64,000 nucleotides of DNA from Halobacteriovoraceae bacterium (lineage in GTDB: Bacteria; Bdellovibrionota; Bacteriovoracia; Bacteriovoracales; Bacteriovoracaceae): positions 373,323 through 437,322 of the forward strand of contig CAVRCF010000002.1 of assembly GCA_963719505.1 (NCBI GenBank), written 5' to 3'. The position numbers were made by a program, and so were the translations under genes. The notes below the pieces were generated by a model that did no database searches, was not told where the DNA came from, and was given only the letters and a program-made list of their open reading frames with translations. Shown here in pieces: positions 2,806 to 25,118 of the stretch (position 1 is the first letter of the stretch; each line of letters opens with the position of its first letter).

Positions 2806-2872
2806 TTGACTGGGGATAAACGCCCTTGATATAACATATCTATGCAATCGATGAAATTAAATTCACTGGTTT

Positions 2873-3914: not shown

Positions 3915-3949
3915 GAAGGTAAAGCGGCAATCAGTTTCTTGGAGAGTGT

Positions 3950-8492: not shown

Positions 8493-8554
8493 AAGACTAT
8501 TCTATCTTTTAGGCGGAGAATTTACTCTTTCGTTGAAGAAGTTTCAATGGGGTG

Positions 8555-9863
8555 TATAAAGATTCGACAATTATGTCCTATCCTTATTTCCCAGCGAAAA
8601 TGTCCTACTTAACGCATTAATATTACAATACTCAGGTAATCAAACCTGAGGTGTTAAATGGGAAAAATAAGCATGGATGCTAAACAAATGAAGCTTTATA
8701 GACTCGCCTGTGAAGTCTTAGCCGGAAAAATTTCTATTAAAGAATTTTCCATCATATCTAAAAAGTCATATCGCCAGTCTCAACGTATTATTAAGAATGT
8801 TGAGACTCATGACTTCATAGGAGTCATACATAAAAATTCTGGTGTTGCTCCAGTAAATAAAACTTCTGAAAGACTAGAAGCTTTGATCGTAGATCTTCTA
8901 ACTTATAAGTATGTTGGATTTAATCTCACTCACTTTAACGAAATGTTAATTAAAAATGAAAACATTAAAATTTCAAAGTCTTCACTTCATCGAATTGCAA
9001 CTAAACACAATCTTGTAAAAGCTCCAAGAAGAGCGAAGAGAAGATCTTTCAAGCCTAGAGCCAGAGTCCCTCAAGAAGGTATGCTCGTGCAGTTCGATGG
9101 AAGCCATCACCCTTGGTTTGGTAATCACAAATCGGACTTAATTGCAGCAATCGACGATGCAACCGGAAAGATTTTAGCAGCAGAGTTTTTTTACGGAGAG
9201 AAGTCGATGCATTCGATGAAAGTTATCAAGGAAGTAATTGATAAAAATGGAATTCCAGAAGCCTTCTACATGGATCAAGCAGGGATTTATGGAAAGGTAG
9301 ATCGAGACTGGGAATCTCAGATCTCAAGAGCCTTTGATCAGGTTAATATTAACTTAATTCTTGCAAGCTCTCCACAAGCTAAAGGACGAGTAGAGCGTCT
9401 CTTTAGGACTCTACAAGATCGACTGGTAGCGGAGCTTTCGTTTTATAAAATAGAAACTTTGGAAGAGGCAAATGACTATTTGAGAACAACTTTTATAGAA
9501 GCTTTTAATAAGCAGTTCTCGGTAGAGTCGCAAAGCTTCGATACAGCTTACAGGAAAAATGTTTTTGGAAATTTAGACAGAGTTTTTTGTAAAAAAGAGA
9601 GAAGAAAAATTGGAGTTGGAAACGTATTTTCTTTCGAAGCAATTACTTGGTTGATAGACGAAAAGTTTTGCTATCGAGGTCGCGAAGTGAATATAAATAC
9701 CCATCTTGATGGCAGTCAGAGCTTTGATATTATGGGTAAAGAAATATATCCAATAGTGTTCAACACAAAGAGGATTTATGACTATAAAAAGCGAGCAATA
9801 TGACACACAAGGTAGGACATAATCGCTGGGATATTAACCGGACATAGTCGCTGGGATTCAACA
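8555..9863 (+). mobile_element. IS1202-family (ISNCY) insertion sequence, 1309 bp, 17-bp target duplication
   Basis: GAAGTTTCAATGGGGTG at 8538-8554 and 9864-9880. Each end carries two inverted ..ATGTCC repeats; right end ...CAACA. The left boundary could be 2 bp earlier (TGT). Confidence 0.85.
8658..9803 (+). CDS. ISNCY/IS1202-family DDE transposase
   Basis: N-terminal HTH; LVQFDGS.H.W, IDDATG, YMD and SPQAKGRVERLFRTLQDRL integrase-core motifs. Confidence 0.9.
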   Translation: MGKISMDAKQMKLYRLACEVLAGKISIKEFSIISKKSYRQSQRIIKNVETHDFIGVIHKNSGVAPVNKTSERLEALIVDLLTYKYVGFNLTHFNEMLIKNENIKISKSSLHRIATKHNLVKAPRRAKRRSFKPRARVPQEGMLVQFDGSHHPWFGNHKSDLIAAIDDATGKILAAEFFYGEKSMHSMKVIKEVIDKNGIPEAFYMDQAGIYGKVDRDWESQISRAFDQVNINLILASSPQAKGRVERLFRTLQDRLVAELSFYKIETLEEANDYLRTTFIEAFNKQFSVESQSFDTAYRKNVFGNLDRVFCKKERRKIGVGNVFSFEAITWLIDEKFCYRGREVNINTHLDGSQSFDIMGKEIYPIVFNTKRIYDYKKRAI

Positions 9864-9878
9864 GAAGTTTCAATGGGG

Positions 9879-9895
9879 TGTCTATTTTTTAGACA
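9879..9895. promoter_or_regulatory. Palindrome TGTCTA-TTTTT-TAGACA (IS target motif)
   Basis: Perfect 6-bp inverted repeat with 5-bp spacer, overlapping the end of the target duplication. Confidence 0.55.
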
Positions 9896-9897
9896 CT

Positions 9898-11097
9898 TTA
9901 CTTTTCACTGGGCTCGTAGCGATTTTCAACACTTGGCCTCACCCTTAGGCTTGCTAGAAAGGGGACTTGAAAAGTTAGGCTCAGTCTGTCTCGATGATCT
10001 ATTTGTTTTAGGGCCAGATCCCAGGGTGATGTAAAATCAATGGCTCTAGATGTTTTAATTCCCTTTCTAAAATGAAGTTCAAAGCTACTCTCTAGTTCTA
10101 AGCTGGCCAAGAAGATATCAAATTCGGTCCCAACTGATAGACCAAATCGAACCTCATTGAGCTTAAATAAACCCCTGTTTTGTTCTGCACGGTCTGCTGT
10201 TTTAAGAATGCTTAAAAATGGGATCGTTAACGAACTCATATTGAGTTTTTTAAGAATATCAGCTTTACGTGTCTTCGTATATTCTACTAAAAAACCCGAG
10301 CCTGCAGATAAGGAGGCAAATTTGATATCTCCGCTGATATTTAGATCAAAAGAGGCTCTTAGACGATAGAGGTTATAGCCGGTTTCCCTTTTAATTTCAT
10401 TTTCATCGACTTTGGAAATCTTTTTAAATAGTTTATCTACAAGCTCACTTTGTCTCGAGGATTCCTTCTCCTTTGAAGGTGTAATTTTAAATCTAAACCT
10501 AATTCTTTTGTCGTAGCCCACTTTTAAAAAATCTAATATTCCAAGATCAAAAGAGAAATAATAGTTTCTCCAAAAGCTATTTATCTGCCACCCATTGGGC
10601 GGGGTGATGGAGCTCATTGTTTTAGCAAAAGTACTTATTTTTTTGGCATCTTTGTGGAGAGTTTTTAAAATTTTTCTTCTCACTGACGGTTTTATTGAAT
10701 TCCAATCAACTTGAGATTTCAACTGCTCGACCAGATCCAATTTAAGTTTCTGTTGTTCATCCTGAGTTACGGATAGGGTTTTCATGGTCTTCGGAGTATC
10801 TGTTTCTTTTCTCCAAATGAACTCAACTGATTTTGAAAATCCAGTTGAGAAAATGCCAATGCCACCTTGGCCACTTATTCCAATAGAGGCATCAATCCGT
10901 TCAAGGTTGTCGTATTTTCTATTTGCCTTGTCGATAATCCCCTCGTAAGCCTTAATGATAGACTCGATTTTCTCAGGGGCATAGACTTGAGAATCCTCTT
11001 TTAATAAGGTCTTTTTTCCAATCCAAGATAAAGGAATATCTTGGGCGTGAAGACAAAAAGAAAAGGCGAGGAGACTTAAAATGAAGAGATTTTTCAT
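9898..11097 (-). CDS. Secreted protein with about five amphipathic beta-hairpin repeats
   Basis: Signal peptide; repeated ~35-aa units such as LFKLNEVRFGLSVGTEFDIFLASLELESSFELHFRK. Confidence 0.6.
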   Translation of the reverse strand: MKNLFILSLLAFSFCLHAQDIPLSWIGKKTLLKEDSQVYAPEKIESIIKAYEGIIDKANRKYDNLERIDASIGISGQGGIGIFSTGFSKSVEFIWRKETDTPKTMKTLSVTQDEQQKLKLDLVEQLKSQVDWNSIKPSVRRKILKTLHKDAKKISTFAKTMSSITPPNGWQINSFWRNYYFSFDLGILDFLKVGYDKRIRFRFKITPSKEKESSRQSELVDKLFKKISKVDENEIKRETGYNLYRLRASFDLNISGDIKFASLSAGSGFLVEYTKTRKADILKKLNMSSLTIPFLSILKTADRAEQNRGLFKLNEVRFGLSVGTEFDIFLASLELESSFELHFRKGIKTSRAIDFTSPWDLALKQIDHRDRLSLTFQVPFLASLRVRPSVENRYEPSEK

Positions 11098-11375
11098 TTG
11101 TCATTCTCCGGATAAAAACGAAATTCTATCGCAGTTTCAATGCCTTTATTCCAGCTCCAAAGTCCCGCTTTGGTATCAATACTTAAACCAATGATCCTTT
11201 GAGAAAGGGAGAGTGAATTTTTAAGGGTGCTTTTTTGTCCAATGGATTCATCGAGTGAGTGAAGAATAAGGTTTTCAAAGTCCTGGCTTTCCACCTGTGT
11301 TTTAGGACCAATATAAAGGGTCTGCGCATGGAGCGCACTCGTCATGAGAAAAAAGGCGATAATAGACTTTTTCAT
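11094..11375 (-). CDS. Small secreted protein with a single beta-hairpin unit related to the next gene
   Basis: Signal peptide; YIGPKT versus WIGKKT in the neighbour; GLSIDTKAGLWSWNKGIETAIEFRF; 4-bp overlap. Confidence 0.6.
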   Translation of the reverse strand: MKKSIIAFFLMTSALHAQTLYIGPKTQVESQDFENLILHSLDESIGQKSTLKNSLSLSQRIIGLSIDTKAGLWSWNKGIETAIEFRFYPENDK

Positions 11376-11491
11376 GGGGAAATTTTATAGCTTTCATGAT
11401 CCAAATCAATCAATTAAGAATAAAATGTAATTTTTTCAGATTAAATTCTGCTTAATTTGTCTGTGAACACAATCTTTAAATTTTTAAAAGC

Positions 11492-12433
11492 TTAAACGAG
11501 CTCTTCAACCTCTTTGAAATACTTAAATGTTGTACCGATGTTTGAGGCTATTTTAATATGTTCTTGGGAGTCCATTTTAGTGGTCCACCAAGACTTTCTT
11601 ATGAGAATTTGATCAACAAGGTTTGGGTGGAGTTTAGATATTTCCAAATAAATTTCAGGATCTCTTTGGCCTTCATCACCGATGAGAATCAATTGACCTT
11701 TGTTAACGAGCTTCGAGATCTCTATAAGGTAGTCAAACTTTTGATGATGAGACTTTTTTGACTTTTGTTTGTCTCTTGTATTTTGAAGAAGGATTGGTCC
11801 GTTTGGAAAATCAAATTCAAGAATAAAATCTTTAATCATAGGATAGAGATCCCATGTCGAGCTTGAGACGTATATGATTTTATTTCCTGCTCTTTCTAAA
11901 TTCTGATAAAATTCACTCGCTCCTTCAAAGGAGCTTCTTTTTTTTAAAGGTCTAAATAGAGTTCTCAGTATTAACTTGGTAAGATTGGTCGCTTGAGATT
12001 TTAAAATAGTATCATCGAGATCACTCACAACAAGTTTCGAATCTCGACTCAGAAAATCAATAGGTATGTCTTTGTAGTTCTCATGCCCTTTTATTTTAAA
12101 TTTTAAAACTTTTGATTGGGTTTCTACTTGTAGAGTCTTTTCAATAAATCCTCTTTTTGATGTTTTAAGAATGTGTTTTCTTCCATCAATGAGAAGCTCT
12201 ACCTCTGTTCTTTTCGAACTTCTCGACAAAAAGAGTCGAATAACTTTGAGGATATGGGATGGATGTGAATCCTTTTTAGAGAATTTGATATCGGAATTTG
12301 ATCTTACGATTCTAAGCCTCAAAAAAAGATTTTCACCATTGCTAATACAGGCGTATGTAAGAACCCTTTTAGGTTCTTTTCCTTTGAAGATAGACAAAGT
12401 CTCTCTTAAAAAATGGAGTGCATGATTAAGCAT
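11492..12433 (-). CDS. App1-family phosphatidate phosphatase (DUF2183, HAD-like)
   Basis: VVSDLDDTI, YVSSSTW.LY, FPNGP and LIGDEGQRDPEIY motifs. Confidence 0.8.
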   Translation of the reverse strand: MLNHALHFLRETLSIFKGKEPKRVLTYACISNGENLFLRLRIVRSNSDIKFSKKDSHPSHILKVIRLFLSRSSKRTEVELLIDGRKHILKTSKRGFIEKTLQVETQSKVLKFKIKGHENYKDIPIDFLSRDSKLVVSDLDDTILKSQATNLTKLILRTLFRPLKKRSSFEGASEFYQNLERAGNKIIYVSSSTWDLYPMIKDFILEFDFPNGPILLQNTRDKQKSKKSHHQKFDYLIEISKLVNKGQLILIGDEGQRDPEIYLEISKLHPNLVDQILIRKSWWTTKMDSQEHIKIASNIGTTFKYFKEVEELV

Positions 12434-12692
12434 TTTTACCTCTTTGTTGATTTGTCTTTTCTATCTTAACAAATACAGAGAGATATACCTTGTATTGATT
12501 TGCATCAGATGTGTATTTTTTTTCAATAAATACAATATATTTCTATGACGAGGTGCAAGCTATGAAAGTTGACTTTTCTACTGTCTTTTCTCTTCAAAGA
12601 AACAATAAGTTGTAGTGTTTTGTGTTGAATTATTCACAGTACCTTCATGGATTTATGAGATAAAAGGTAAATACCTCCCGTATTATTATTAC

Positions 12693-12818
12693 AAGAGGAA
12701 GAGATCACATCTCTAAACCAGTCTAAGGACTAAACGGCCCGCCTCAAGTAGCTAAAAAATTTTAGCTACATTATCTAAAAAAAGTATTTATCAATACATT
12801 CTAGAATCTCTTCCTCTT
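12693..12818. ncRNA. Putative structured ncRNA, copy 1 (126 nt)
   Basis: 13-bp perfect terminal stem AAGAGGAAGAGAT/ATCTCTTCCTCTT and internal hairpins; no ORF; TATTAT 6 nt upstream on the + strand. Confidence 0.5.
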
Positions 12819-12979
12819 AAGCTTTTTAAAGTTTAAATCTATCGCGCTAGTAGGTGAGTCTTTAGGTCGATTTTGAATAAATTTGGTTTCAATGACTTGT
12901 ATATTTTTGTGTTTAATATTGCACAGAACCTTCATGGATTTATGAGATAAATTGTAAGCACCTCACGTACTATTATTAC

Positions 12980-13105
12980 AAGAGGAAGAGATCACATCTC
13001 TAAACCAGTCTAAGGACTAAATGCCCCACCTCAAGTAGCTAAAAAATTTTAGCTACATTATCTAAAAAAAGTATTTATCAATACATTCTAGAATCTCTTC
13101 CTCTT
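12980..13105. ncRNA. Putative structured ncRNA, copy 2 (126 nt)
   Basis: Three substitutions relative to copy 1; TACTAT 6 nt upstream on the + strand. Confidence 0.5.
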
Positions 13106-13111
13106 AAGCTT

Positions 13112-13567
13112 TTACCAAGAGCCAATATTTTCCATGCTCTGCCATGGCTCGCATATTTTAAGAGAATCACCTTTTTGAAGCAGTTCTATAGAGATACCAT
13201 CAGGAGATTTGATAAAGGCCATGTGTCCATCTCTTGGAGGTCTATTGAGAATAACACCTTGATCCATCAGGTTCTTGCAAAATTCATAAATATTATCTAC
13301 TCTGTAGGCAAGATGACCAAAGTTTCTTCCACCTTGATAGTCCTCAGTGTCACCATTTTCATCAGGCCAGTTATAGGTTAGCTCGAGAAGGGGAGATTTA
13401 CTTGTTTGAGCTTTTTCAAAATTTTCATCATCTGACAGAAAGATCAATGTAAAACGTCCTCTTTCATTCTCTGATCGACTGACTTCTTTGAGGCCAAGCT
13501 TATCACAGTAAAAGTCCAAACTTTTTGTTAGGTTTTTAATTCTTATCATCGTGTGAAGATATTGCAT
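13112..13567 (-). CDS. gloA: Lactoylglutathione lyase (glyoxalase I, VOC family)
   Basis: YLHTMIR, LELTYNW, GRNFGHLAY and RPPRDGHMAF.SPD.ISIELLQ. Confidence 0.9.
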   Translation of the reverse strand: MQYLHTMIRIKNLTKSLDFYCDKLGLKEVSRSENERGRFTLIFLSDDENFEKAQTSKSPLLELTYNWPDENGDTEDYQGGRNFGHLAYRVDNIYEFCKNLMDQGVILNRPPRDGHMAFIKSPDGISIELLQKGDSLKICEPWQSMENIGSW

Positions 13568-13575
13568 GAGAACTC

Positions 13576-14304
13576 CTATAAGTTTTTATATAAAATAAAG
13601 GATCCCATAATAATAAGAAAAATAGCAAATATCTTTTTTAATTTTGCTTGTGGAACTTTTGTATTAAGGATGGCACCTAGGAAAATACCAATAGTTGAGC
13701 AGATTGAAAAAAGGATCATGAGCTTCCAAGGTATATCGACTCTGCCAAGATAGGATAGGAAGCCAAAAATAGAATTAAAGCTAATAATGAAAAGTGATGT
13801 TCCCACAGCTTTTCTCATATCTATTCCGGTAAAGAACATAAGTGCCGGAACGATTAAGAACCCCCCCCCAACGCCGATAATTCCTGTCATGACTCCAACA
13901 AAAATGCCCGATACTGAGATGAGTGGGTAGTTGAGACCTCTGGGGTGGTCATCTATTTCAGCTCTTCCTCGAAACATAAATACTGCGGCAATTATCATAA
14001 TGGCAGAAAAAATGAGAAGTTGTATCTGACCGGTTAAAAATTGACTTAGATAAGATCCAAGATAGGTTCCAGGTACGGCGAACCCTCCAAAGATAAAAGC
14101 AATTTTAAAACTTATGTTTTTATTTTTAAAGTGACCGTACATGCCCATTAAAGCTGTCCAACCAACAATCGCTAAGCTCATTGCAACGGAGACTTTAGGG
14201 TCTACATTAAAGATGTAGACAAGAATGGGGACGGTGAGAATAGATCCACCTCCACCAAGAAGGCCCATTGCCAAACCAGCAAATAAAGCTAAAGCATATC
14301 CCAT
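13576..14304 (-). CDS. TauE/SafE sulfite exporter family permease
   Basis: GLLGGGGSILTVP, GVGGGFLIVPAL and AVGTSL; polytopic membrane protein. Confidence 0.9.
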   Translation of the reverse strand: MGYALALFAGLAMGLLGGGGSILTVPILVYIFNVDPKVSVAMSLAIVGWTALMGMYGHFKNKNISFKIAFIFGGFAVPGTYLGSYLSQFLTGQIQLLIFSAIMIIAAVFMFRGRAEIDDHPRGLNYPLISVSGIFVGVMTGIIGVGGGFLIVPALMFFTGIDMRKAVGTSLFIISFNSIFGFLSYLGRVDIPWKLMILFSICSTIGIFLGAILNTKVPQAKLKKIFAIFLIIMGSFILYKNL

Positions 14305-14353
14305 AATCTTATTCCTTTTCTTTCTATACTAGCTTTTAACCAGCGGCATGTAA

Positions 14354-14367
14354 TTGATAGAGATCAA
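14354..14367. promoter_or_regulatory. Perfect FNR-type box TTGAT-AGAG-ATCAA upstream of the TauE gene
   Basis: Matches TTGAT-N4-ATCAA about 50 bp upstream of the start at 14304. Confidence 0.7.
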
Positions 14368-14972
14368 TGACCAAAGTTTTTTAAGTCTTCTTCACTCAAA
14401 ATATCTATGGATCTTCCATTCTTCTCAATAATCTTGGCTTTTTCTAGTTTTGATATAACTCTTGCCACTGACTCTGGGGTTGTCGATGCGAAATCAGCGA
14501 TGTCTTTACCTTTCCATTTAATTTCGGGATCTTTAATTTTCAAAAAAAGTAAGGCTTCGGCCACTCTCTTAGTTACTGTTTTATCCTGGACTGATGCTAA
14601 ACGAATTTCAGTTTGCGCCAAGTCCCTTGCCAAGGTTTTCATAATCGTTTTTAAAATTTCTGGGCTTTCAGAGCAAAGTTGATCACATGCCTCTTTTGAA
14701 ATGACTTTCACTTTTATATCTGTGAGAGCAAAAGCTGTAGCGTGATGGGGCTCTTGTGCAAAAAAAGAGCGATGACCCATATGATCATTTTCTTTGAAGA
14801 TTCTGAGAAATGTGCTCTTTCCATTTTCTGTATTATAAGAGAGTCCAACAACACCATCAAGGAGATAGTAGACATGGTCTGGAGCATCACCCTCATGGTA
14901 AACAAAAGCGCCTTTAGTTAATACTTTTACTGGAAGAGATGTATCTAACTTGACGATATTACTTAGACTCAA
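14364..14972 (-). CDS. Crp/Fnr-family transcriptional regulator
   Basis: cNMP-binding fold (VYHEGD..HVYYLLDG) and HTH DIADFASTTPESVARVISKL. Confidence 0.9.
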   Translation of the reverse strand: MSLSNIVKLDTSLPVKVLTKGAFVYHEGDAPDHVYYLLDGVVGLSYNTENGKSTFLRIFKENDHMGHRSFFAQEPHHATAFALTDIKVKVISKEACDQLCSESPEILKTIMKTLARDLAQTEIRLASVQDKTVTKRVAEALLFLKIKDPEIKWKGKDIADFASTTPESVARVISKLEKAKIIEKNGRSIDILSEEDLKNFGH

Positions 14973-14992
14973 GTGTTAATCCTTTTACAAAA

Positions 14993-15006
14993 TTGATAGA
15001 GAACAA
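14993..15006. promoter_or_regulatory. FNR-type box TTGAT-AGAG-AACAA in the divergent promoter
   Basis: One mismatch to consensus; same spacer as the box at 14354. Confidence 0.6.
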
Positions 15007-15065
15007 TGTTTTAAATTTGATATTAATATATGATACTGAATGAAAGGACTATTAGGAAATATATT

Positions 15066-15944
15066 ATGACTTTAAAAGTACAACATTTTTTCGACGAAAA
15101 GACTAAAACATTAAGTTATATCGTTTATGATGAAAAGACGTCAGACTGCGTCCTTATTGATCCCGTTTTAGATTATGATCAAGCCTCCTCAAAGATTTCA
15201 AATGAATCAATAAAGGCGGTTAAAAGTTTTATAGCAAAGAAGTCTCTAAAGGTGCATTATATTTTAGAGACTCATGCTCATGCGGATCACCTCTCAGGAG
15301 CTCAGGAATTATTAGAATCTTTTGATCATGCAAAGCTTGTGATTGGAAAAAACATCACAAAGGTTCAAGAAGTTTTTTCTAAAATATACAATTTAAAAAA
15401 CCTAAACCTCAAAGGTGAACAGTTCGATATCTTAGTCGATGAAGACTCTGTTTTGAAAGCCGGAAGCTTTGAGATTAATGTCATCGAAACTCCTGGGCAT
15501 ACGCCAGCTTGCGTCTCTTATCATATAGAAAACCATCTCTTCACAGGAGATGCTCTTTTTATGCCTGACTATGGAACGGGAAGGTGTGACTTTCCAGCAG
15601 GAAGTGCAAAAGACCTTTACCATTCAATACACGAAAAGCTTTATAAACTACCAGATGAAACACAGTTCTACACCTGTCACGATTATCAACCCAACGGAAG
15701 ACAGATGATATACACATCTTCAATCGGTGAGAGTAAAGCTCGTAATATTCAGTTGAAAGACTCTACAACACGTAGTGAGTACATAGAGTTCAGAGAGAAA
15801 AGAGATGCCACTTTGAGCGCACCAACTCTTTTACTTCCAAGTATACAAATAAATATTGATGGAGGCCGTCTTCCCAAAGAAGAAGACAACGGCACCTCTT
15901 ATATAAAAATACCTTTAAACAGAGAGGACGAATATGAACGGTGA
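15066..15944 (+). CDS. Persulfide dioxygenase (ETHE1/Blh-like MBL-fold)
   Basis: IDPVLDYD, ETHAHADH, TPGHTPAC, FMPDYGTGRCDFP and CHDY. Start placed at ATG 15066 (AGGA RBS). Confidence 0.9.
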   Translation: MTLKVQHFFDEKTKTLSYIVYDEKTSDCVLIDPVLDYDQASSKISNESIKAVKSFIAKKSLKVHYILETHAHADHLSGAQELLESFDHAKLVIGKNITKVQEVFSKIYNLKNLNLKGEQFDILVDEDSVLKAGSFEINVIETPGHTPACVSYHIENHLFTGDALFMPDYGTGRCDFPAGSAKDLYHSIHEKLYKLPDETQFYTCHDYQPNGRQMIYTSSIGESKARNIQLKDSTTRSEYIEFREKRDATLSAPTLLLPSIQINIDGGRLPKEEDNGTSYIKIPLNREDEYER

Positions 15945-16353
15945 AATATTATTTCCTCTTATTGGAGGCATTTTAATTGGGTTGGCAGCTAGCCTTGTTC
16001 TTGTCGGTTTAGGAAAAATCACAGGTATAAGTGGTATTTTAGCATCAGCCGTTTTTAATCCAACTCTTAAAGAAAATGTCTGGAAGATTGTTTTTGTCTG
16101 TGGCTTGATTCTTGGTGGACTTTTAATGAGAAGGTTTTATCCCGAACTTTTTAACTATTCCATTTCAACCAATATTCCTCTTGTTATTGCGGCAGGTTTG
16201 TTGGTTGGATTCGGCACCAGGCTTGGAAGTGGATGCACCTCTGGGCACGGGGTTTGCGGTTTACCAAGACTGTCAAAAAGATCCTTAGTCGCGACCCTCA
16301 CTTTCATGGGGAGCGGAATTATAACTGTTCTGATTAAAGGAGCTCTTTCATGA
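15934..16353 (+). CDS. YeeE/YedE sulfur-compound transporter subunit
   Basis: GISG and GTRLGSGCTSGHGVCG..RLS.RS. Confidence 0.9.
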   Translation: MNGEILFPLIGGILIGLAASLVLVGLGKITGISGILASAVFNPTLKENVWKIVFVCGLILGGLLMRRFYPELFNYSISTNIPLVIAAGLLVGFGTRLGSGCTSGHGVCGLPRLSKRSLVATLTFMGSGIITVLIKGALS

Positions 16354-16751
16354 AAAATGTTCTGAGTTTATTTGCAGGGATGATATTTGCCATAGGTCTT
16401 GTCGTATCAGGAATGACAAATCCCGCAAGAGTCATCGGTTTTTTAGATATTTTTGGGCAGTGGGATTATTCCTTGGCCTTTGTCATGGGTGGAGCTGTTG
16501 TTGTTAACTTGGTTCTTTTTCGATGGATTTTAAAAAGAGATCCCATTTTTAATGGTAAACATGATCTTCCGACAAATAAGCTTATCGATAAAAAACTAAT
16601 TATTGGATCAACTTTATTTGGTGTCGGTTGGGGACTTGTTGGAATTTGTCCAGGTCCAAGTATCGTTAATCTCGTCACTGGAAACGTCAGCGCAATCATC
16701 TTTTTTCTCGCAATGATTGCTGGTTTTTTCTTAGAAAAAAAGCTTAATTAA
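16350..16751 (+). CDS. YeeE/YedE-family partner subunit
   Basis: SGMTNP..VIGFLD..G.WD.SL and FGVGWGL.G.CPGP. Confidence 0.9.
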   Translation: MKNVLSLFAGMIFAIGLVVSGMTNPARVIGFLDIFGQWDYSLAFVMGGAVVVNLVLFRWILKRDPIFNGKHDLPTNKLIDKKLIIGSTLFGVGWGLVGICPGPSIVNLVTGNVSAIIFFLAMIAGFFLEKKLN

Positions 16752-18117
16752 ATTCGCCATTTTTCAATTTATCAAAATATCGTTTCGTTTGAACTTTAAG
16801 CTTAGGCAGTAAAAGCCAAATAGCAATGATATTTGGAAACACCATCATCCCGGTCATAATGTCCGAGAAGTCGAGAACTGCTTGAACTTTCCATACTGAT
16901 CCCAGAAAAGCCACGATACAAAAGACAACTTTATAGGGGACGATACCTTTTTCTCCTGTCAGATAGTGAATCGCTGTCTCACCGTAATAAGACCAACTTA
17001 TCAATGTAGAAAAAGCAAATAATGTTGCAGCAACTGGAATAAAGAAATGTCCAAAACCATCTATTACTGTGTCAAAAGCTAGTGCTGTTAAGGGGACACC
17101 AACTAAGTCTGAGCTTTCCCACACGCCTGTTGTGAGAATAACTAAAGCTGTAAGAGTACAGATTGTAACGGTATCGATAAAAGGTCCAAGGAGAGCGACA
17201 ACACCCTCTCTAACTGGCTCTGTCGTTGATGCGGCAGAGTGTGCAATCGCCGCAGATCCCAAGCCCGCTTCATTCGAGAAGCATGCTCTTTTTACTCCTT
17301 GAAGGATGGCCATGTGCATCGTTGCAACAAGTCCTCCCGAGAGTCCTGTATTAGAAAAAGCACTTGTAATAATTAGAGAGATGAGACCAGGGATTTTTTC
17401 ATAGTGAAAAGAGATGACAATAATGCATCCAATAATATAAGTGACGGCCATCACAGGAACAAGAAGACTGGTGACTTTGGCAATTCTGTTAATTCCACCA
17501 ATAATTACAATACCACCTAGAATCATAATCGTTAGACCCGTCACTAGGTGTGGGACGCCAAAGCTTTGATTGAGGATGACCGCTGACTGATTTGTTTGAA
17601 ACATATTGGCAATTCCAAAACTTCCGATAGCGATTGAAAGAGCGTAGAACTTTGCCATTGGCTTGAACTTTTTTCCAAGTCCCAGTTCCATATAGTACAT
17701 TGGTCCACCACGAACAACGCCATTTGGCTCAATTTTTCTAAAGAGAATGGCGAGTGTGGATTCAGCATATTTTGTGGCCATCCCAATAACTCCAGCGACA
17801 ATCATCCAAAATACAGCCCCAGGACCACCATACTTTATAATGATGGCAACGATTCCAATATTTCCTAGACCTATAGTGGCAGAAAGAGCGGTCATAAGTG
17901 CTTGAAAATGAGAAATCTGTCCTGGGTCATCATCTTTATCAAATTTTCCACGAATAACTTGAATCCCGTGGAGAAAGGCTTTTCTTTGAATACCTCCATA
18001 AATACCGCCAAGAATAACGGATAGAAGGAGTCCTGATAAAATTAAAACAATAATTGTAGGAAGTCCCCAAACATAGCTAACTGTAAGGGCCAAAAAGTTT
18101 TCGATAGAAGTCATCAT
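16744..18117 (-). CDS. Alanine/glycine:cation symporter (AGCS family)
   Basis: ISHFQAL..ALSATIG.GNI, GGPGAVFWM, GGPMYY, FSNEAGLGS and DTVTICT.T. Confidence 0.9.
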   Translation of the reverse strand: MMTSIENFLALTVSYVWGLPTIIVLILSGLLLSVILGGIYGGIQRKAFLHGIQVIRGKFDKDDDPGQISHFQALMTALSATIGLGNIGIVAIIIKYGGPGAVFWMIVAGVIGMATKYAESTLAILFRKIEPNGVVRGGPMYYMELGLGKKFKPMAKFYALSIAIGSFGIANMFQTNQSAVILNQSFGVPHLVTGLTIMILGGIVIIGGINRIAKVTSLLVPVMAVTYIIGCIIVISFHYEKIPGLISLIITSAFSNTGLSGGLVATMHMAILQGVKRACFSNEAGLGSAAIAHSAASTTEPVREGVVALLGPFIDTVTICTLTALVILTTGVWESSDLVGVPLTALAFDTVIDGFGHFFIPVAATLFAFSTLISWSYYGETAIHYLTGEKGIVPYKVVFCIVAFLGSVWKVQAVLDFSDIMTGMMVFPNIIAIWLLLPKLKVQTKRYFDKLKNGEFN

Positions 18118-18155
18118 AACTAATAGTGACGCAATAAATTTACATTGTAAAATAG

Positions 18156-19469
18156 CTAGAGGGCCTTGGCGATTCCGCTAGATATATCAAAGCAATTCCA
18201 CTGTAGTATGTCGTTTTTTTGATTTTGGCAGTAGCAAGCGACTAACTGGTCTTTCTCCACTCTCTCACTTGCTGTAGAGCAGTTTTTATTTATATAGTTT
18301 TGAGACAGCTCAATTCCAGAAGATGGAGACATCGGTCCCGAACAAATAAGTTGTGCTAGATTTTTATTTTTTATCCACGTTCCATCAATACAAATTGATT
18401 CGTCTCCTTGGCAGTGTTTAACTTCGCCAATATATTCACTGTAGCATGATTCCCCAGAGGAGCGACTGATAGCATTATTAGTATCCTCAACTGAACACAC
18501 GGCTCCAGAATTAGCCGGAGTGATATTATTTAACTGATCACTCATCTGAGCAACTTTACTAATAGGACTGTAGTCTTTTGTGTAGATACCGTCTTGAAAA
18601 TCTCCGCTTAGGTACTGATCCATAGAGATAAAGTCAATGCCCAGGCACTTTCCCTTTTCGATCAACTCATCCATGACCGTCTTTTGAGTATTATATTTTG
18701 AAGGAAGAGAGTTTATCTCCCTGGTATCATGAAAAAGAGTCATGAAGTTTTTCACTGAACTTTTGCAAATCGATTTTAGTTGATCTTGAATATATTTGTC
18801 TTTATTAGATTCGCTATAGGTTGAACTGGCATCTTTAGAATCTAAGTTCCAGCCAATATGAGACAAATTAAATTCACTTGCCACACTCATAGCCGGACTA
18901 TTGAGGCGATAGTATTTAAGTTTTTCCGCGTAACTCGCTCCTATAATTCTTCTGCCTTGTTCGTCGATCATTGTTTGAATTTCTTTTTTACTAGGGGATA
19001 TTCCTCGACCGTAAGGGAAGCGTAAAAGCGTGTGCTTTTGTTTTTGAAATTTACCATCAGTAAAAGAATTTAAAAGAGAAACACTTTTACCAATTTGATC
19101 ACGTCTTTGTTGATCAGAGTAGCCTACTTCAAGAGAATCACCAACGTAGCGAAGATCGTGACAATTATGATCGTGGACGTGGCTTGAGAGAGTATGCCCC
19201 GAATCTAGCATTGAATTTAAAATAAGTTTTTTTTGTTTAAGGTCACCCTTTTCAAGTTGATGAGTAGAAATAAAAAAAGTCGCTTTTACGTTTTGTCTTT
19301 TTAGTGTTTCGACAATCTTGGGTGTTGTCGTTGTGTTTGGCCCATCATCAAAAGTGAGATGAACTTTTTTATTATCACAACTCTTTATCTCAGAGATGTC
19401 GTTTTTATAAAGATCGCAGTTTTGAGCTGAAGCGATAGAGAAGGGAATAAGAGCAAGAAGAAAAAACAT
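18156..19469 (-). CDS. Secreted polysaccharide (peptidoglycan) deacetylase, CE4, with Cys-rich C-terminus
   Basis: Signal peptide; LTFDDGP, HVHDH, RFPYG and LFHD motifs. Confidence 0.8.
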   Translation of the reverse strand: MFFLLALIPFSIASAQNCDLYKNDISEIKSCDNKKVHLTFDDGPNTTTTPKIVETLKRQNVKATFFISTHQLEKGDLKQKKLILNSMLDSGHTLSSHVHDHNCHDLRYVGDSLEVGYSDQQRRDQIGKSVSLLNSFTDGKFQKQKHTLLRFPYGRGISPSKKEIQTMIDEQGRRIIGASYAEKLKYYRLNSPAMSVASEFNLSHIGWNLDSKDASSTYSESNKDKYIQDQLKSICKSSVKNFMTLFHDTREINSLPSKYNTQKTVMDELIEKGKCLGIDFISMDQYLSGDFQDGIYTKDYSPISKVAQMSDQLNNITPANSGAVCSVEDTNNAISRSSGESCYSEYIGEVKHCQGDESICIDGTWIKNKNLAQLICSGPMSPSSGIELSQNYINKNCSTASERVEKDQLVACYCQNQKNDILQWNCFDISSGIAKAL

Positions 19470-19537
19470 CTGTTTATTATATCAAGGAATTAAAGAGGTT
19501 TTCATGTGAGTAGTATTTGCCACTTGTTGAAAAAAAT

Positions 19538-19563
19538 AAAGCCGAGGTTTTTACCCCGGCTTT
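19538..19563 (-). terminator. Intrinsic terminator
   Basis: AAAGCCGAGGT-TTTT-ACCCCGGCTTT hairpin with an A-tract, just after the stop at 19569. Confidence 0.65.
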
Positions 19564-19568
19564 TGATA

Positions 19569-20516
19569 TTATTGATTTTGTACTGAGATATAGTCAAATA
19601 GGTTGCTATCATCGATATTGATTTCAGAAAATTTTGTTGATCCATAACTTGTTACTAAAGCTCCAATATTATTAGCTTCTGTTTCAGTATGTCTCATTAA
19701 AAGTTTTGTGGCTTTTCTATCATTAGCTATCTTGATACCAACTCCCGCAGATAGTATAGTTGATCTTTTTATAATCACTTCTTCAGCGTCATAAACATGG
19801 ATTCCTTCAGCTGCATTTCCAAGAGTTGAATCTACTATTCTAACCAGTTTTGTATCGTAGATAAAAACCTGTGTTCCATCAATCTGTGCATTAGAAAGAT
19901 CCATATCTTTAATGACAACTTTCTCAGTGGCCTTAAGGTTAAAACCATTCGCAGATCCATCAAAGATGCTATTGTGTTTTTCAAGAATTCTAATCTTTTT
20001 TGCAGAAAGGCTTAGAGCCACTTGTTTTGAATATGAAAAATCTGAATTGATAAATCTTGGAGAATAATCACAGCTTGGGGCATTGACTCGCGCACCATAA
20101 GTATTATGACTGAGATCACTATTTGAAACTCTTAATCTGTCACAAGATTGATCATCTTCAGAATAAAAATCAACTCCCATATACATATCAGTAGCGATAA
20201 CTTTGTTGAGAATCAATTTCTTTACATTATAACCCTCAACCGCTTTGGCCGTTTCGCTTCCTTCTATCTTTACATTTCTTATTCTAATCGTGTCACCTTC
20301 AGCATAGATACCAACTGTCGTGTTTGGAGTGATAATTCTGTGACCATTTCCTTGTAAAATAGCTTCACCTCTCAAAGAGAGTGCTGAGTACCCTGAGTGA
20401 GCTGAACAATCTAGATCTTCAGTCATCTTTACTTCAGTTGTAATAGTGTCTCCGCAGTTAAGTGCGAATGCTGATAGTGAAATTAAATTAAGTGCCGTGA
20501 TAGTAAGTAGTTTCAT
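19569..20516 (-). CDS. Secreted right-handed parallel beta-helix protein
   Basis: Signal peptide, CGDTIT..V..TEDLDC start, repeated G(I/V).(V/I)...N/D beta-helix turns. Confidence 0.7.
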   Translation of the reverse strand: MKLLTITALNLISLSAFALNCGDTITTEVKMTEDLDCSAHSGYSALSLRGEAILQGNGHRIITPNTTVGIYAEGDTIRIRNVKIEGSETAKAVEGYNVKKLILNKVIATDMYMGVDFYSEDDQSCDRLRVSNSDLSHNTYGARVNAPSCDYSPRFINSDFSYSKQVALSLSAKKIRILEKHNSIFDGSANGFNLKATEKVVIKDMDLSNAQIDGTQVFIYDTKLVRIVDSTLGNAAEGIHVYDAEEVIIKRSTILSAGVGIKIANDRKATKLLMRHTETEANNIGALVTSYGSTKFSEINIDDSNLFDYISVQNQ

Positions 20517-20677
20517 TTTTTCCCCTCTCTCAAAAGTTAAATTAAATGTCTTTGTTTCTTTAAGAGCTGCAAGGAGAGGGCCAAAAAGGAAGGTGGCTAA
20601 TTAGTTGAATATTCTTTTATGAAGGAAGAGAAACTGTAAATTTTTTAGGAGCTGTATAGAAACTAGACGATTATGTC

Positions 20678-22427
20678 GTAACTGCTCAATAAAGTGTTCT
20701 TCAAATCTTTAAAAATATTTATTTTGAACTAATCATCAGAAATTGTTTGGCCATCCATCTCTTTTTTGTAAATATATCTCCATGGCATTTGATGAATTAA
20801 AAAACATGGCAATGGGATGGGTAAATACTTGGAATAAAGGCAAACTCAAAAGAAAGTTAAAAGAGACTGCTCAGCGTGCTGTAGACCTTACTATAGAAAA
20901 TTCAGAGTTGGAAAAAAAGAATAGTGAACTCATAGATGAAGTTCGTCGTCTCAAAGGTGAAAAAGAAAAACCTAAAATAAAGCCAACAAATACTAGTGAC
21001 CTAAATCCACCTCCGAAGAAAGAACATAAGAAAAAGTCTAAAAAGAAAGATATCGAAGTTGATGAAGAGATTGAAATTTCTCCAGATAAAAATGAACTCC
21101 CTAAAGACGCTAAATTCATCGGTTCTAGAGATGTTGTGGTCCAAGAAATAGTATTTAATCGCAGAAATATAAAATTCTCTATTAAGAGATATTACTCTGA
21201 AAGTCTTAGTAGAGTTATCGAAGGTGAGATACCTTCAGGTTTCAAGGGCCATCAGTTTGGTCCTAAACTTCGGGCCCACATTCTTTATTTGAATTACAAA
21301 TTAAGAGTTCCCCACGAAAAGATTAGAGAAATGCTCTCTGAGCTAAAAATTGATATTAGTGCTGGAACTATAAATTCAATTCTAAATAACCTGACTGATG
21401 ACTTTCAGGTTGATCTGGAATCCGCAAGACATGCAGGACTAAAAAGAGATTCGAAAGTTCATATCGATGATACTGGGGCGAAAGTTAATGGAGTAAAAGC
21501 TTACACATTTGGAGTAAGCCATAAGTACTTTACTAGCTTCACTACGAGTTTTGAAAAGAATCGTTGGGCATCGGTGGGAGCACTCTTTGGAGGTGAGCAA
21601 AGGTTTATTTTCGATAGAGCTGCAATTGATTTTATTGGTAAGAAACTAAAACGTCCCAAGGTTACAGTATTTTTTAACCTTCTAGAAAAGAAGATAAGTT
21701 TTAGTCGAGAAGAATTAGAGGTCTTTTTTGAAGATTCGACTTTCTCAGATGTAACTAAAAAACAAAAAGATATCGTTAGAACTGCTGGTGCACTTAGTTA
21801 TGCGAACTCTAGAGCGAATGGACCACCAATAAGATTTTTAATCTCAGATGAAGGGACAAATTTTAATGGGCTTCATAGGAACCATCAGCTTTGTTGGGTG
21901 CATGAGATTCGTAAATATAAGCTATGTGAGGTTTTCAAAAGAATAGAGAGTGAAACCCTTGAGAAATTGGTTCGTCAGTGGAGAGCTTTTTATAAGCTCA
22001 TGAAGAGGTACAGGAATAATCCTGACACCGTTAAGAGAATACAGATTCGATCAGAATTTGAGAGGATCACGTCTTTAAAAACATTAGTTAAACCACTGGA
22101 TGCACAGCTTGGAAGAACAAGAAAGAATAGAGATAAACTTTTACTATTTTTGAAATACCCACAACTTCCTCTGGATAATAACCTTTGCGAAAGAGACCTT
22201 CGAGAACGAGTGATAAAAAGAAAAATCTCACTTCAAAACCGCTCATTGAAAGGAATGAAGTCTTGGGACTTGATGCTTTCACTGGCCTCAACTTGTAGAA
22301 AAATAAATTTGAGTTTTTGGCGATATTTAGAAGATCGAATCTCCCAACGAGAAGAAATTCCATACCTGGGCAAGCTAGTTCAAGCTATTTAAATCCTATA
22401 AATTTAAACACAATATTGAGCAGTTAC
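20678..22427 (+). mobile_element. IS66-family element, single-ORF (ISBst12-like), 1750 bp
   Basis: Perfect 14-bp terminal inverted repeats GTAACTGCTCAATA; 8-bp target duplication ATTATGTC (20670-20677 and 22428-22435). Confidence 0.9.
20782..22392 (+). CDS. IS66-family transposase
   Basis: Coiled-coil N-terminus, FGP.LRA, HIDDTG, LISD, HQLCWVH and DNNLCERDLR..V.KRKIS. Start codon uncertain. Confidence 0.9.
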   Translation: MAFDELKNMAMGWVNTWNKGKLKRKLKETAQRAVDLTIENSELEKKNSELIDEVRRLKGEKEKPKIKPTNTSDLNPPPKKEHKKKSKKKDIEVDEEIEISPDKNELPKDAKFIGSRDVVVQEIVFNRRNIKFSIKRYYSESLSRVIEGEIPSGFKGHQFGPKLRAHILYLNYKLRVPHEKIREMLSELKIDISAGTINSILNNLTDDFQVDLESARHAGLKRDSKVHIDDTGAKVNGVKAYTFGVSHKYFTSFTTSFEKNRWASVGALFGGEQRFIFDRAAIDFIGKKLKRPKVTVFFNLLEKKISFSREELEVFFEDSTFSDVTKKQKDIVRTAGALSYANSRANGPPIRFLISDEGTNFNGLHRNHQLCWVHEIRKYKLCEVFKRIESETLEKLVRQWRAFYKLMKRYRNNPDTVKRIQIRSEFERITSLKTLVKPLDAQLGRTRKNRDKLLLFLKYPQLPLDNNLCERDLRERVIKRKISLQNRSLKGMKSWDLMLSLASTCRKINLSFWRYLEDRISQREEIPYLGKLVQAI

Positions 22428-22515
22428 ATTATGTCCTATCCTTATTTCTCAGCGATTATGTCCTATTCAATAATATTTATGTACCCTGATTCCAATCAGT
22501 TATTAGGGGAATTGA

Positions 22516-23679
22516 ATGGGAAAAGTCACTATGTCACAAAAAGAATTGAAGCAGTATCGCCTGGCCATGGATGTTATTGAAGGTAAGTTAACTATAATTT
22601 CCTTCTCTGAACAGATTGGAAAATCGTATCGACAATCTCAGAGAATTATCAATAAAGTTAAGGCCAAGGGTTCGATTGGTGTCTTACATGGAAACATTAA
22701 TCGAACTCCTCACAATAAAACTCCATTCGAAGTTGAAGAAAAAATAGTCTCTCTTCTAAAAAATCAATATCGAAACTTTAATCTAACTCATTTTCGAGAA
22801 AAGATAGAAGAGTATGAGGAAATTAAAATCAAAAAAGATGCACTTCACTCAATTGCTAGGAAACATTGCCTTGTAAAACATCCTAAACGAAGAGGAAGAC
22901 GGTGCCATAAACCAAGAGCAAGACTTCCAAAAGAAGGGATGATGATTCAGTTTGATGGAAGTGATCATACTTGGTTCGGTGATGAAAGAACTGATTTGAT
23001 TGGAGGAATTGATGATGCTACCGGGATTGTTGTTGGTGCTGAATTTTTCTATGGAGAGACGTCAAATAACTCTCTGAAGGTGATTAGGGAGATCGTTGAT
23101 AACTATGGATTGCCAGAAAGTTTCTATATGGACCAAGCAGGTATTTATGGTAAGAAAGAGCGCGAGTGGGAATCACAAATTTCGAGAGCATTTGATCAAA
23201 CAGGAATTCAATTAATCTTAGCAGGTTCTTCTCAAGCAAAGGGAAGAATAGAGAGACTCTGGAGAACATTCCAAGACAGACTGGTAGCGGAGTTAGAATT
23301 TAATCACATAACAAATATTGAAGAAGCCAATTATTACTTAAAAGAGATTTTTATTCCTGCATACAATTTTCAATTCTCAGTCAAAGCCGAAGAAGAAGAA
23401 GAAAAAGCCTGGAGAAAAAATGTTTTTGGAGACCTAGATATTATATTTTGTAAAAAGATTAGGCGAAAAATTATGGTTGGAAATGTATTTAGTTGGGAGA
23501 ATGTGACTTGGGTGTTGGATGAAAAAAGGTGTTTCTATGGACGAGAAATCAATATAAATATTCACCTTGATGGAAGCTACAGCTTCGATGTGATGGGCAG
23601 AAAAGTTCAATGTAAAGTTAGTAATAGGAAAAGATTAAGTGACTATGGTGATAAGTCGAAACACAGAAAAAGCGCTTAA
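22516..23679 (+). CDS. ISNCY/IS1202-family DDE transposase
   Basis: QFDGS.H.W, IDDATG, FYMDQAG and SQAKGRIERLWRTFQDRL; a diverged homolog of 8658-9803. Confidence 0.9.
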   Translation: MGKVTMSQKELKQYRLAMDVIEGKLTIISFSEQIGKSYRQSQRIINKVKAKGSIGVLHGNINRTPHNKTPFEVEEKIVSLLKNQYRNFNLTHFREKIEEYEEIKIKKDALHSIARKHCLVKHPKRRGRRCHKPRARLPKEGMMIQFDGSDHTWFGDERTDLIGGIDDATGIVVGAEFFYGETSNNSLKVIREIVDNYGLPESFYMDQAGIYGKKEREWESQISRAFDQTGIQLILAGSSQAKGRIERLWRTFQDRLVAELEFNHITNIEEANYYLKEIFIPAYNFQFSVKAEEEEEKAWRKNVFGDLDIIFCKKIRRKIMVGNVFSWENVTWVLDEKRCFYGREININIHLDGSYSFDVMGRKVQCKVSNRKRLSDYGDKSKHRKSA

Positions 23680-23751
23680 AGTCTGATAGGACATAATCGC
23701 TCAGAAATTAACCGGACATAATTGCCCAGAAACAACAAATTTTTTAGGAGC

Positions 23752-23768
23752 TGTCTAAAGTTTAGACG
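23752..23768. promoter_or_regulatory. Palindrome TGTCTA-AAGTT-TAGACG (IS target motif)
   Basis: Same motif and same position relative to the target duplication as 9879-9895. Confidence 0.55.
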
Positions 23769-24650: not shown

Positions 24651-24683
24651 TCAGCCACTGTCAAATATTTAGACAGTGGCTGA
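24651..24683 (-). terminator. 12-bp hairpin, terminator-like, enclosing TGTCAA-ATATT-TAGACA
   Basis: TCAGCCACTGTC/GACAGTGGCTGA immediately after the stop at 24690. Confidence 0.6.
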
Positions 24684-24689: not shown

Positions 24690-25118
24690 TTATCTTAAAT
24701 AATCAAAAGAGAATCCACCTATATAGTCTATTCCTGATAGGTTTTGCTCTAAAGAATCAGCCAGCGGAAGATGCCCAGATCTTTTATAAACATCTCCATA
24801 AAATTTAATTTGGTTTGTGCCTTTTAGATAAGTCCCTTTTATGATGATGGTCGATTTAAAAGATTGGAAACTTGTATTAAAGGCAGCGATAAAAATCGTT
24901 TGTCCGTTTTGGTTAAAAGATTTGAATTTTTTCGTTCTCCACTCAAAGTTTGTTCCTGATAGGACAACTTCACCCTGTCCTCTTGAAGGCACATCGAGGA
25001 TAACCTGTCTTGTTGTCAGTTCCCCAGAAGGGAGTTTATAGTAAATCTCACCATCGACAGGTGCTGCAAATGAGTTCAGTGAAAAAGCGTAAGCAAAAAG
25101 TAGAATTAATGTTTTCAT
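24690..25118 (-). CDS. Secreted hypothetical protein
   Basis: Start placed at ATG 25118 (AAGGAG RBS), giving signal peptide MKTLILLFAYAFSLNSFA. Confidence 0.65.
   Translation of the reverse strand: MKTLILLFAYAFSLNSFAAPVDGEIYYKLPSGELTTRQVILDVPSRGQGEVVLSGTNFEWRTKKFKSFNQNGQTIFIAAFNTSFQSFKSTIIIKGTYLKGTNQIKFYGDVYKRSGHLPLADSLEQNLSGIDYIGGFSFDYLR

Follow-up and report, generated by a model that had tools for sequence, protein, structure and literature searches.

An IS1202-family insertion target that resembles the elements' own left end in Bdellovibrionota

What makes two different insertion sequences (ISs) enter DNA at the same base of the same palindrome? The question is raised by a stretch of 64,000 nucleotides from a Halobacteriovoraceae bacterium (GenBank assembly GCA_963719505.1, contig CAVRCF010000002.1, positions 373,323 to 437,322), hereafter the window, which carries two elements, here named IS1 and IS2, each placed at a TGTCTA-N5-TAGAC(A/G) palindrome. 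The first-pass annotation of the window had proposed an unrecognised targeting rule that uses a dispersed site, read directly or through a bound host protein, and steers insertions to gene ends. We found that the targeting rule holds well beyond the window and no longer rests on two events, and that the target resembles the left end of the element that uses it. These observations point to a Bdellovibrionota clade of ISTde1-type IS1202-family elements with site- and orientation-specific integration, in which, judging from the sequences, the transposase probably reads the site as a pseudo-left end.

Two elements and one address in the window

The features of IS1 and of its insertion site are the following (aa, amino acids).

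8538..8554, plus strand: left copy of the IS1 target duplication, GAAGTTTCAATGGGGTG, 17 bp
8555..9863, plus strand: IS1, an IS1202-family (ISTde1-type) element of 1309 bp
8555-8578: left end of IS1, TATAAAGATTCGACAATTATGTCC
8594-8607 and 9813-9826: second, inner GCGAnnATGTCCTA repeat of IS1, one per end
8658..9803, plus strand: IS1 transposase, 381 aa
9840-9863: right end of IS1, terminating in ...TTCAACA
9864..9880, plus strand: right copy of the IS1 target duplication, GAAGTTTCAATGGGGTG
9879..9895, no strand: target palindrome 1, TGTCTA-TTTTT-TAGACA, TGTCTATTTTTTAGACA; 12 of 12 arm bases, the first TG being the end of the duplication

Those of IS2 are:

20639..20654, plus strand: left copy of the IS2 target duplication, AATTTTTTAGGAGCTG, 16 bp
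20655..23737, plus strand: IS2, the second IS1202-family element, with about 1325 bp of its own DNA, left end interrupted by a nested element; left tip TATAGAAACTAGACGATTATGTC
22516..23679, plus strand: IS2 transposase, 387 aa
23714-23737: right end of IS2
23738..23753, plus strand: right copy of the IS2 target duplication, AATTTTTTAGGAGCTG
23752..23768, no strand: target palindrome 2, TGTCTA-AAGTT-TAGACG, TGTCTAAAGTTTAGACG; 11 of 12 arm bases

Both duplications are perfect and each ends in the TG that opens its palindrome, which confirms the first-pass annotation on sequences and positions alike. GAAGTTTCAATGGGGTG and AATTTTTTAGGAGCTG each match twice in the window, against 0.02 and 0.14 expected matches, respectively. 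The exact direct repeats are 19 bp (IS1) and 18 bp (IS2) and extend beyond the 17- and 16-bp duplications because one base per side matches the element tips by chance; the TG and the T that follows it may thus be assigned to the duplication or to the left tip. The two copies of the IS2 duplication lie 3.1 kb apart because an IS66-family element splits the left end of IS2:

20670-20677 and 22428-22435: 8-bp duplication of the nested element, ATTATGTC
20678..22427, plus strand: nested IS66-family element inside the left end of IS2, with ends GTAACTGCTCAATA.../...TATTGAGCAGTTAC
20743-22392: its single open reading frame (ORF), 549 aa, matching PF03050

This nested element parts the IS2 tip from its first (outer) putative transposase-binding repeat, and IS2, its left end being split, is probably immobile now.

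Both transposases score above the cut-off of 250 bits for NF033594 (NCBIfam, ISNCY family transposase), with 302.8 bits for IS1 and 313.1 bits for IS2, so that their assignment to the IS1202 family was upheld; at 59% identity they are also clearly diverged, as had been claimed. In an alignment of 66 family members, D147, D166, D167, D206, E246 and Q253 are invariant, and these residues of the IS1 transposase fit the D-DD-D-E-Q(+7) signature that Siguier et al. give for the family in the accessible part of their preprint (bioRxiv 10.1101/2022.12.17.520857). The AlphaFold model of the IS1 transposase (pLDDT 93) consists of two N-terminal three-helix bundles (8-56 and 71-116), an RNase H fold (144-287) and beta-barrel strands (312-369). 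Its best structural matches in the PDB are the TnsB, IstA and MuA transpososomes (E 8e-16 to 8e-10); a sequence-only search of the PDB with the transposase gave no hit. The same TnsB-like architecture, with two HTH bundles, an RNase H fold and a beta-barrel, is described for ISAjo2 in the accessible text of Harmer et al. (PMC10132070). Inside IS1, the transposase strand holds no further ORF of at least 80 aa.

By their 16-17-bp duplications and their length of about 1.3 kb, the window elements are ISTde1-type members of the IS1202 family. ISTde1 itself is tabulated with 394 aa and 1327 bp in the accessible part of PMC10132070, close to the 381-387 aa of IS1 and IS2 and the 1309 bp of IS1. An internal second copy of the inner part of the terminal repeat, a trait of the family, is present in both window elements.

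The target in other elements, its rarity and its surroundings

The motif was defined on the two window sites and five new flanks were looked at afterwards, which therefore form an independent test. They came from a scan of species-representative genomes that gave at least 591 stretches and at least 11 confirmed loci; the window's own genome is not among the matches listed, and further copies of the clade probably exist beyond these matches. Relatives with 52-61% identity are held by seven loci, all of them, among the matches listed, in Bdellovibrionota metagenome-assembled genomes (MAGs). The ends and the right flank could be read in five of the seven (L001-L005, from four Bdellovibrionota MAGs). 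Left out of the count given below were L007 (decayed, with atypical tips), L008 (no recognisable ends), L009 (the contig stops before the right end), L011 (the first 95 aa only) and, as a clade insertion site, L006.

Perfect duplications of 16, 15 and 16 bp were found at L001, L002 and L004, so that, with the window, five of seven elements have one; the five lengths (17 and 16 bp for IS1 and IS2) lie within the range of 15-17 bp given for the ISTde1 subgroup. The elements at L003 and L005 have clear ends and unlike flanks. Element copies of that kind are described in the accessible parts of the IS1202-family papers, where they are ascribed to recombination between copies. After the duplication, the end of which is marked by a colon, the right flanks read:

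L001: TG:TCTA-GAATT-TTGACA
L002: TG:TCTA-AACTG-TAGTCA
L003: TG:TTTA-AAAAT-TTGACA
L004: TG:TCAA-AAAGT-TAGACG
L005: TG:TCAA-AAAAA-TCAACA

All five further readable flanks thus show the motif at the same offset. In the seven elements together, the motif starts 16 bp (17 in IS1) past the ...ACA of the right end, always on the right side, and the seven targets match 12, 11, 11, 11, 10, 10 and 9 of the 12 arm bases. The seven transposases are intact and pairwise 51-84% identical and therefore represent seven different elements at seven different insertion sites; all flanks of the seven insertions differ. The motif being kept in all five further independent insertions, the claim of a real site-targeting rule was borne out.

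How rare the motif is was assessed in a background of 170,084 bp (the window, L001-L008 and L011). At least 9 of the 12 arm bases are present at 81 of 169,924 plus-strand positions (4.8e-4). With at most one arm mismatch on either strand, 30 Markov shuffles led us to expect 0.33 places; 5 were seen, four of them being occupied targets, and this test of chance frequency, named beforehand, spoke for the rule. With at most two mismatches there were 14 places against 6.8 expected, made up of six occupied targets, five junctions with the elements' own left ends and three free sites. Unoccupied copies of the motif are not enriched in these 170,084 bp, their number being at or below chance. The left flanks hold no motif, the sole matches on that side being junctions with the left end itself, and a symmetric counterpart to the left of the duplication was rejected on these grounds.

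Within the 64-kb window, TGTCTANNNNNTAGACR with at most one mismatch gave 7 strand-matches at 4 places, against 0.44 expected: the two targets, the junction of the IS2 duplication and left end (20653-20669) and a free copy (24659-24675) about 900 bp from the IS2 site. The free copy was considered as a cassette boundary and rejected, as it forms the middle of a terminator hairpin with a 10-bp stem and a T-run:

24653..24681, minus strand: hairpin outside the system, stems AGCCACTGTC...GACAGTGGCT and a T-run, terminator-like, of ORF 24690-25238

This hairpin holds its one-mismatch copy of the motif without an insertion.

We considered the possibility that there is no targeting at all and that the motif results from chance, from the survivorship of neutral intergenic insertions, from the relic of an older element end or from a part of the element. 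In favor of this, all the sites are intergenic, and the stop codons that the motif carries on both strands bias it away from coding sequence. Yet, each of the five later flanks matches 9 or more of the 12 arm bases at the fixed offset, against a background frequency of 4.8e-4 per position, and intergenic selection cannot yield a 12-base motif at a set distance and orientation. The likeness to the left end, described below, ends after about 15-18 bp and fails at position 2, so that the site is no decayed end; the 16 or 17 bp between the right end and the motif are duplicated flank, different in each copy, so that the motif is not borne by the element. An absence of targeting is therefore extremely improbable.

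The surroundings of the sites bear on the claim that insertions are steered to gene ends. In the window, each palindrome is indeed found at the 3' end of an ORF on the minus strand, as the first reading had it: a stop codon is found 2 bp from palindrome 1, and palindrome 2 contains that of ORF 23755-24600. Of the seven sites, four have the motif close to the stop codon of a convergent ORF (at 2, 58 and 126 bp, or overlapping it) and two have it upstream of a co-directional ORF, the remaining one being unclear; with only four of seven sites near the 3' end of a convergent ORF, steering to gene ends did not hold. All seven are intergenic or overlap a stop codon, a location that is partly expected because the motif carries stop codons on both strands. 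The proteins flanking the insertions have no mutual BLASTP hit at 1e-3, and their Pfam domains belong to mixed, unrelated families. A shared neighbor gene or regulon was rejected, the neighbors being unrelated by both BLASTP and Pfam.

Before the insertion of IS1, the intergenic region consisted of positions 8493-8554 and 9881-9897 of the window. By eye, palindrome 1 on the minus strand is 5 bp upstream of a promoter-like TTGAAA-17 bp-TAAATT ahead of ORF 7269-8492, and IS1 now lies between the palindrome and this promoter-like sequence.

The dif consensus (C arm-6 nt-D arm, as printed in PMC10132070) was compared with the sequence within 100 bp of 14 flanks and gave best matches of 10-13 of 22, against a background mean of 11.7. 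A likeness to dif or xrs was rejected, the best matches being at background level near all 14 flanks, which agrees with the earlier statement that the motif is unlike these sites.

Another possibility is that the transposase recognizes a cruciform or hairpin formed by the palindrome, in the manner of elements that target REP sequences or hairpins; REP palindromes are known IS targets. When single-strand folding was compared with that of shuffled sequences, the palindromes at 9879-9895 and 23752-23768 did fold better (z -5.3 and -2.3, respectively). In contrast, the sites of L001, L002 and L004, three of the five tested, folded no better than shuffles (z -0.35, -0.37 and +0.11), and mismatches in the arms are never accompanied by compensating changes across the targets. 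Moreover, the stems are 6 bp long and AT-rich, and the enzyme is a DDE transposase, working on duplex DNA. A conserved hairpin as the target was rejected, two of five sites beating shuffles and the mismatches being uncompensated, and recognition of a structure is very improbable.

Left-end likeness of the target and its candidate reader

The left ends of the clade read TG:TATA-N5-T(A/C/G)G(A/T)C(G/A)-ATTATGTCC, with TG as the end of the duplication. When the left end of each element was compared with its own target, in register from the joining point, 11, 13, 10, 10, 8, 13 and 7 of 18 positions were identical, against a null mean of about 5 of 18 (single-site P of 0.004, 1e-4, 0.013, 0.012, 0.1, 1.7e-4 and 0.19). 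The agreement falls at positions 1, 3, 4 and 10-15. Position 2 is an A in every left end, and it is a C in six of seven targets and an A in none; the target is therefore more palindromic than the left end. The right end agrees more poorly with the target, at about 6 of 10 informative positions counted by hand. As far as the letters can tell, the target mimics the left tip of its own element in exact register. This likeness, as well as the right end-spacer-left end geometry of the junction, had been missed by the first-pass annotation.

The right ends of the clade finish in ...ACA in all seven copies. The left end begins with TAT in the register that it shares with the right end (18 nt before ATGTCC), and a start with TGT, as in the family pattern 5'-TGT...ACA-3', requires that the two final bases of the duplication be assigned to the element; the truncated copy L011 has TC instead of TG before TATA. 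Repeats resembling GCGAnnATGTCCTA or GCGAttATGTCCTA are found twice per end in IS1 and IS2 and at most ends in L001-L006. The ATTATGTCC core, present in four copies per element, is predicted as the likeliest main binding site of the transposase.

While offset, orientation, motif, rarity and left-end likeness are observed, it is from them that we infer what reads the site: most likely it is the transposase itself, much as in the end-targeting of IS30 and IS911. The TnsB/MuA/IstA-like DDE transposase, with its two N-terminal helical bundles, would bind the site as a pseudo-left end. Probably, one of these bundles reads TAGAC in each arm of the palindrome, and the better palindrome of the target, compared with the left end, suggests that two copies of the TAGAC-reading domain would sit on the site. 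DDE enzymes attack with a 5' stagger. The 3' end of the right end would join the top strand 16-17 bp upstream of the site, and that of the left end would join the bottom strand at ...TAGA^CA; this point coincides exactly with the pseudo-end tip and adjoins the CA that also flanks the real left end. In the product, the right end is followed by 16 or 17 bp and the palindrome, and the left end replaces the palindrome beside the other copy of the duplication. For ISKpn21, which also belongs to the IS1202 family, bioRxiv 10.1101/2022.12.17.520857 reports circles in which the left flank separates the two ends, so that attack by the right end falls one duplication-length outside the left end. Insertion may copy this ISKpn21-like geometry of circle formation, a look-alike taking the place of the left end; the arrangement right end-16/17 bp-pseudo-left end would be the counterpart of an IS circle or tandem junction.

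At L006, this geometry is present with a genuine left end 16 bp from a right end. Two elements (355-2793 and 2810-4265; 330.8 and 312 bits with NF033594) that are 35% identical stand there head to tail, 16 bp apart. The first is 50-53% identical to the window transposases and has a right end finishing in ...TTTAACA, and the real left end of the other family member, TGAAAAATGACATCG..., starts exactly 16 bp past it. The pair is bracketed by a 16-bp direct repeat, GTCCCTATTCTTTATT, which suggests that it moved as a composite.

The first L006 element also contains a 186-aa passenger ORF (1912-2472) whose resemblance to IS200/IS605 and REP-associated tyrosine transposases is weak and falls below the cut-off.

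Could a host protein read the site in place of the transposase? A dimeric DNA-binding protein on TGTCTA-N5-TAGACA might recruit or position the transposase and perhaps serve also as a cofactor at the left end. We know of no candidate for such a protein. The idea is in keeping with the perfect 6-5-6 symmetry of the consensus, which exceeds that of the left end (position 2, a C, is paired with the G at position 12), with the fact that all seven sites are intergenic or overlap a stop codon, and with the lack of the rule in distant relatives from other phyla, as expected of a lineage-specific factor. Relatives within the family, the ISAba32 subgroup, are also thought to use a site bound by a host protein, XerC at dif-like sites (PMC10132070 and bioRxiv 10.1101/2022.12.17.520857, in their accessible parts). 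However, free sites are not enriched, as 3 places with at most two mismatches were seen when 6.8 are expected for all places in 170 kb; the sole good free site is the stem of a terminator; and the neighboring genes have no common family or function. A host protein alone would moreover leave unexplained both the register of site and left end with the cleavage point and the junction with a real left end at L006. We therefore consider this explanation rather unlikely. Taken as a whole, the earlier interpretation kept its site rule and its distinction from dif and lost the dispersed host site as well as the steering to gene ends.

Several points weigh against reading of the site by the transposase. 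Position 2 differs consistently, so that the best target departs there from an exact left-end copy, and a dimer of a host protein would account at least as well for the palindrome and for the C at this position. The likeness of the target to the left end is confined to the first 15 bp and does not include the ATTATGTCC core. The seven likeness tests amount to about one comparison, for which we estimate a P of about 1e-3 to 1e-4, given that the left ends are homologous and that a single motif is common to the targets. The loci were fetched for holding an element, and the rate of free sites per genome is therefore poorly known; the events number seven, and the targeting rule is a matter of sequence comparison. 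At L006, the spacer differs from the outer repeat, the order of events given above presumes composite movement, and the contig is short and of low coverage.

The distant relatives add to these points. They comprise L010 (Planctomycetia) and six plasmid copies from Vibrio, Pseudoalteromonas, Shewanella and Paenibacillus, 31-40% identical, and all seven have clear 16-18-bp duplications. In six of the seven, the right flank agrees with the element's own left end at only 2-8 of 18 positions. The seventh, L012 (Vibrio halioticoli plasmid, 1341-3140), has the right flank TGTCATTTCCACAGTCTT and the left end TGTGATCACCAAGGGATT, identical at 11 of 18 positions (P 0.002), a single case that could be due to chance. 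A family-wide mimicry of the left end was rejected, one of seven distant relatives being similar, which makes the rule a property of this clade instead of the subgroup as a whole.

Reading of the site by the transposase can be extended to a bolder proposal, which is possible and which we put forward tentatively. A lone 381-aa DDE transposase, without helper protein or guide RNA, would read a 15-17-bp address that mimics its left tip and would insert at one bond and in one orientation; such homing would have evolved by re-using the synapsis of circle formation, and the duplication would double as the spacer of a junction promoter, with a -35-like right tip and TATA(A/G)N at the left tip. As a -10-like element, TATA(A/G)N scores 4-5 of 6 in seven of seven copies, and the right tip (T/A)CAACA reaches only 3-4 of 6 as a -35-like one. 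That a right end-16/17 bp-left end junction would space promoter elements is a weak idea and does not count as evidence for recognition by the transposase. On this idea, the left end has at its position 2 the key A of a -10 hexamer, which could explain why it is an imperfect palindrome. A second weak idea, which likewise adds no evidence, concerns the duplication lengths of the IS1202 family, 5-6, 15-17 and 27-28 bp in the accessible part of bioRxiv 10.1101/2022.12.17.520857: they are about one helical turn apart, which would put the two attacked phosphates on the same face of the DNA each time.

Known systems, distant observations and scope

The closest known system is the ISAba32 subgroup (ISAjo2, ISAba71 and ISKpn21, inserting at the XerC/D sites xrs, pdif and dif), which belongs to the same NF033594 family and has the same D-DD-D-E-Q residues and fold plan. 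From the accessible parts of the papers, it shares with the elements described here a single ORF, oriented insertion, a recognized site one duplication-length from one end and a duplication that abuts the site. It differs in that dif sites have an 11-6-11 layout whereas the present target is a 6-5-6 palindrome, in that its duplications are 5-6 bp long instead of 16-17 bp, and in that its site adjoins the left end instead of the right end. Unlike its sites, the target described here resembles the left end of the element itself.

End-like targets are also known from other families. IS911 (IS3 family), which belongs to a different family from IS1202 and uses a spacer of 3-4 bp, is said, from the title of Rousseau et al. 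2008, to show targeted insertion beside end-like sequences, reportedly with a bias between left and right ends. Neither window transposase has an IS30-family match in NCBIfam at E <=0.01. IS30 nevertheless offers a likeness: the accessible part of PMC9333248, which also mentions end-targeting by IS911, describes for IS30 a dual targeting of hot spots and ends that gives only oriented IRL-IRR junctions. Common to IS30 and the present elements are a preference for near-palindromic sequences and/or element ends, strict orientation and a copy-out-paste-in context (PMC9333248, same part). The spacer or duplication of IS30 is 2 bp, against 16-17 bp here, and hot spots and ends are separate target classes in IS30 whereas the hot spot itself is left-end-like here.

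In Tn7, with its attTn7 site, and in CRISPR-associated transposons, TnsB is structurally the closest transposase (E 8e-16 to 5e-10). These systems resemble the present one in having several binding repeats per end and a one-sided, oriented insertion at a fixed distance from a recognized sequence. They differ from IS1, in which the transposase is the only ORF of at least 80 aa on its strand and no TnsC, TnsD or IstB-like helper gene is present. The duplication made by Tn7 is 5 bp, against 16-17 bp here.

In the accessible part of the text of Siguier et al., only the subgroup with 5-bp duplications targets xrs (bioRxiv 10.1101/2022.12.17.520857), and that of Harmer et al. states that no conserved target was found for elements with longer duplications, independent examples being wanting (PMC10132070). 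The accessible literature, a search with the family-paper supplements, ISfinder and TnPedia outside it, describes no target for long-duplication IS1202 members. The target rule is real and previously unreported in this literature, and it combines site-specific insertion of IS1202-family elements with end-like targeting, both known in kind.

The seven different elements supply independent examples and a defined 17-bp address for the long-duplication branch of the family. Should the site be read by the transposase, they would represent a compact, helper-free and orientation-specific integration system as well as a concrete case of target choice evolved from end recognition. For annotation, the rule predicts the position of elements, accounts for head-to-tail pairs and is of use in drawing element boundaries. 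It has a modest reach, the clade being small and so far found, among the matches listed, in Bdellovibrionota only: 1.84 billion representative proteins contain four fragmentary representatives with at least 55% identity, against 517 family members at E <=1e-30.

A different arrangement was observed in a Pseudoalteromonas plasmid (L013; 144-1349 and 1342-3121) and a Shewanella plasmid (L014; about 1191-1349 and 1342-3125). In both, the left end of an IS1202-family element with a 16/17-bp duplication lies 8-9 bp beyond the right end (...CTAGTACA) of an IS481-family element, of which L013 has the complete form and L014 a remnant with 80% identity. The duplications begin 8 bp inside the IS481-family end and run on into different flanks, and they therefore look like two independent events. 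This arrangement may be a second, different kind of end-targeting in the IS1202 family.

Elsewhere in the window (25197-27990), an aconitase gene is split into four consecutive ORFs that cover Pfam profile positions 10-276, 279-426 and 429-463 and then the C-terminal domain, which marks either a pseudogene or indel errors in the assembly.

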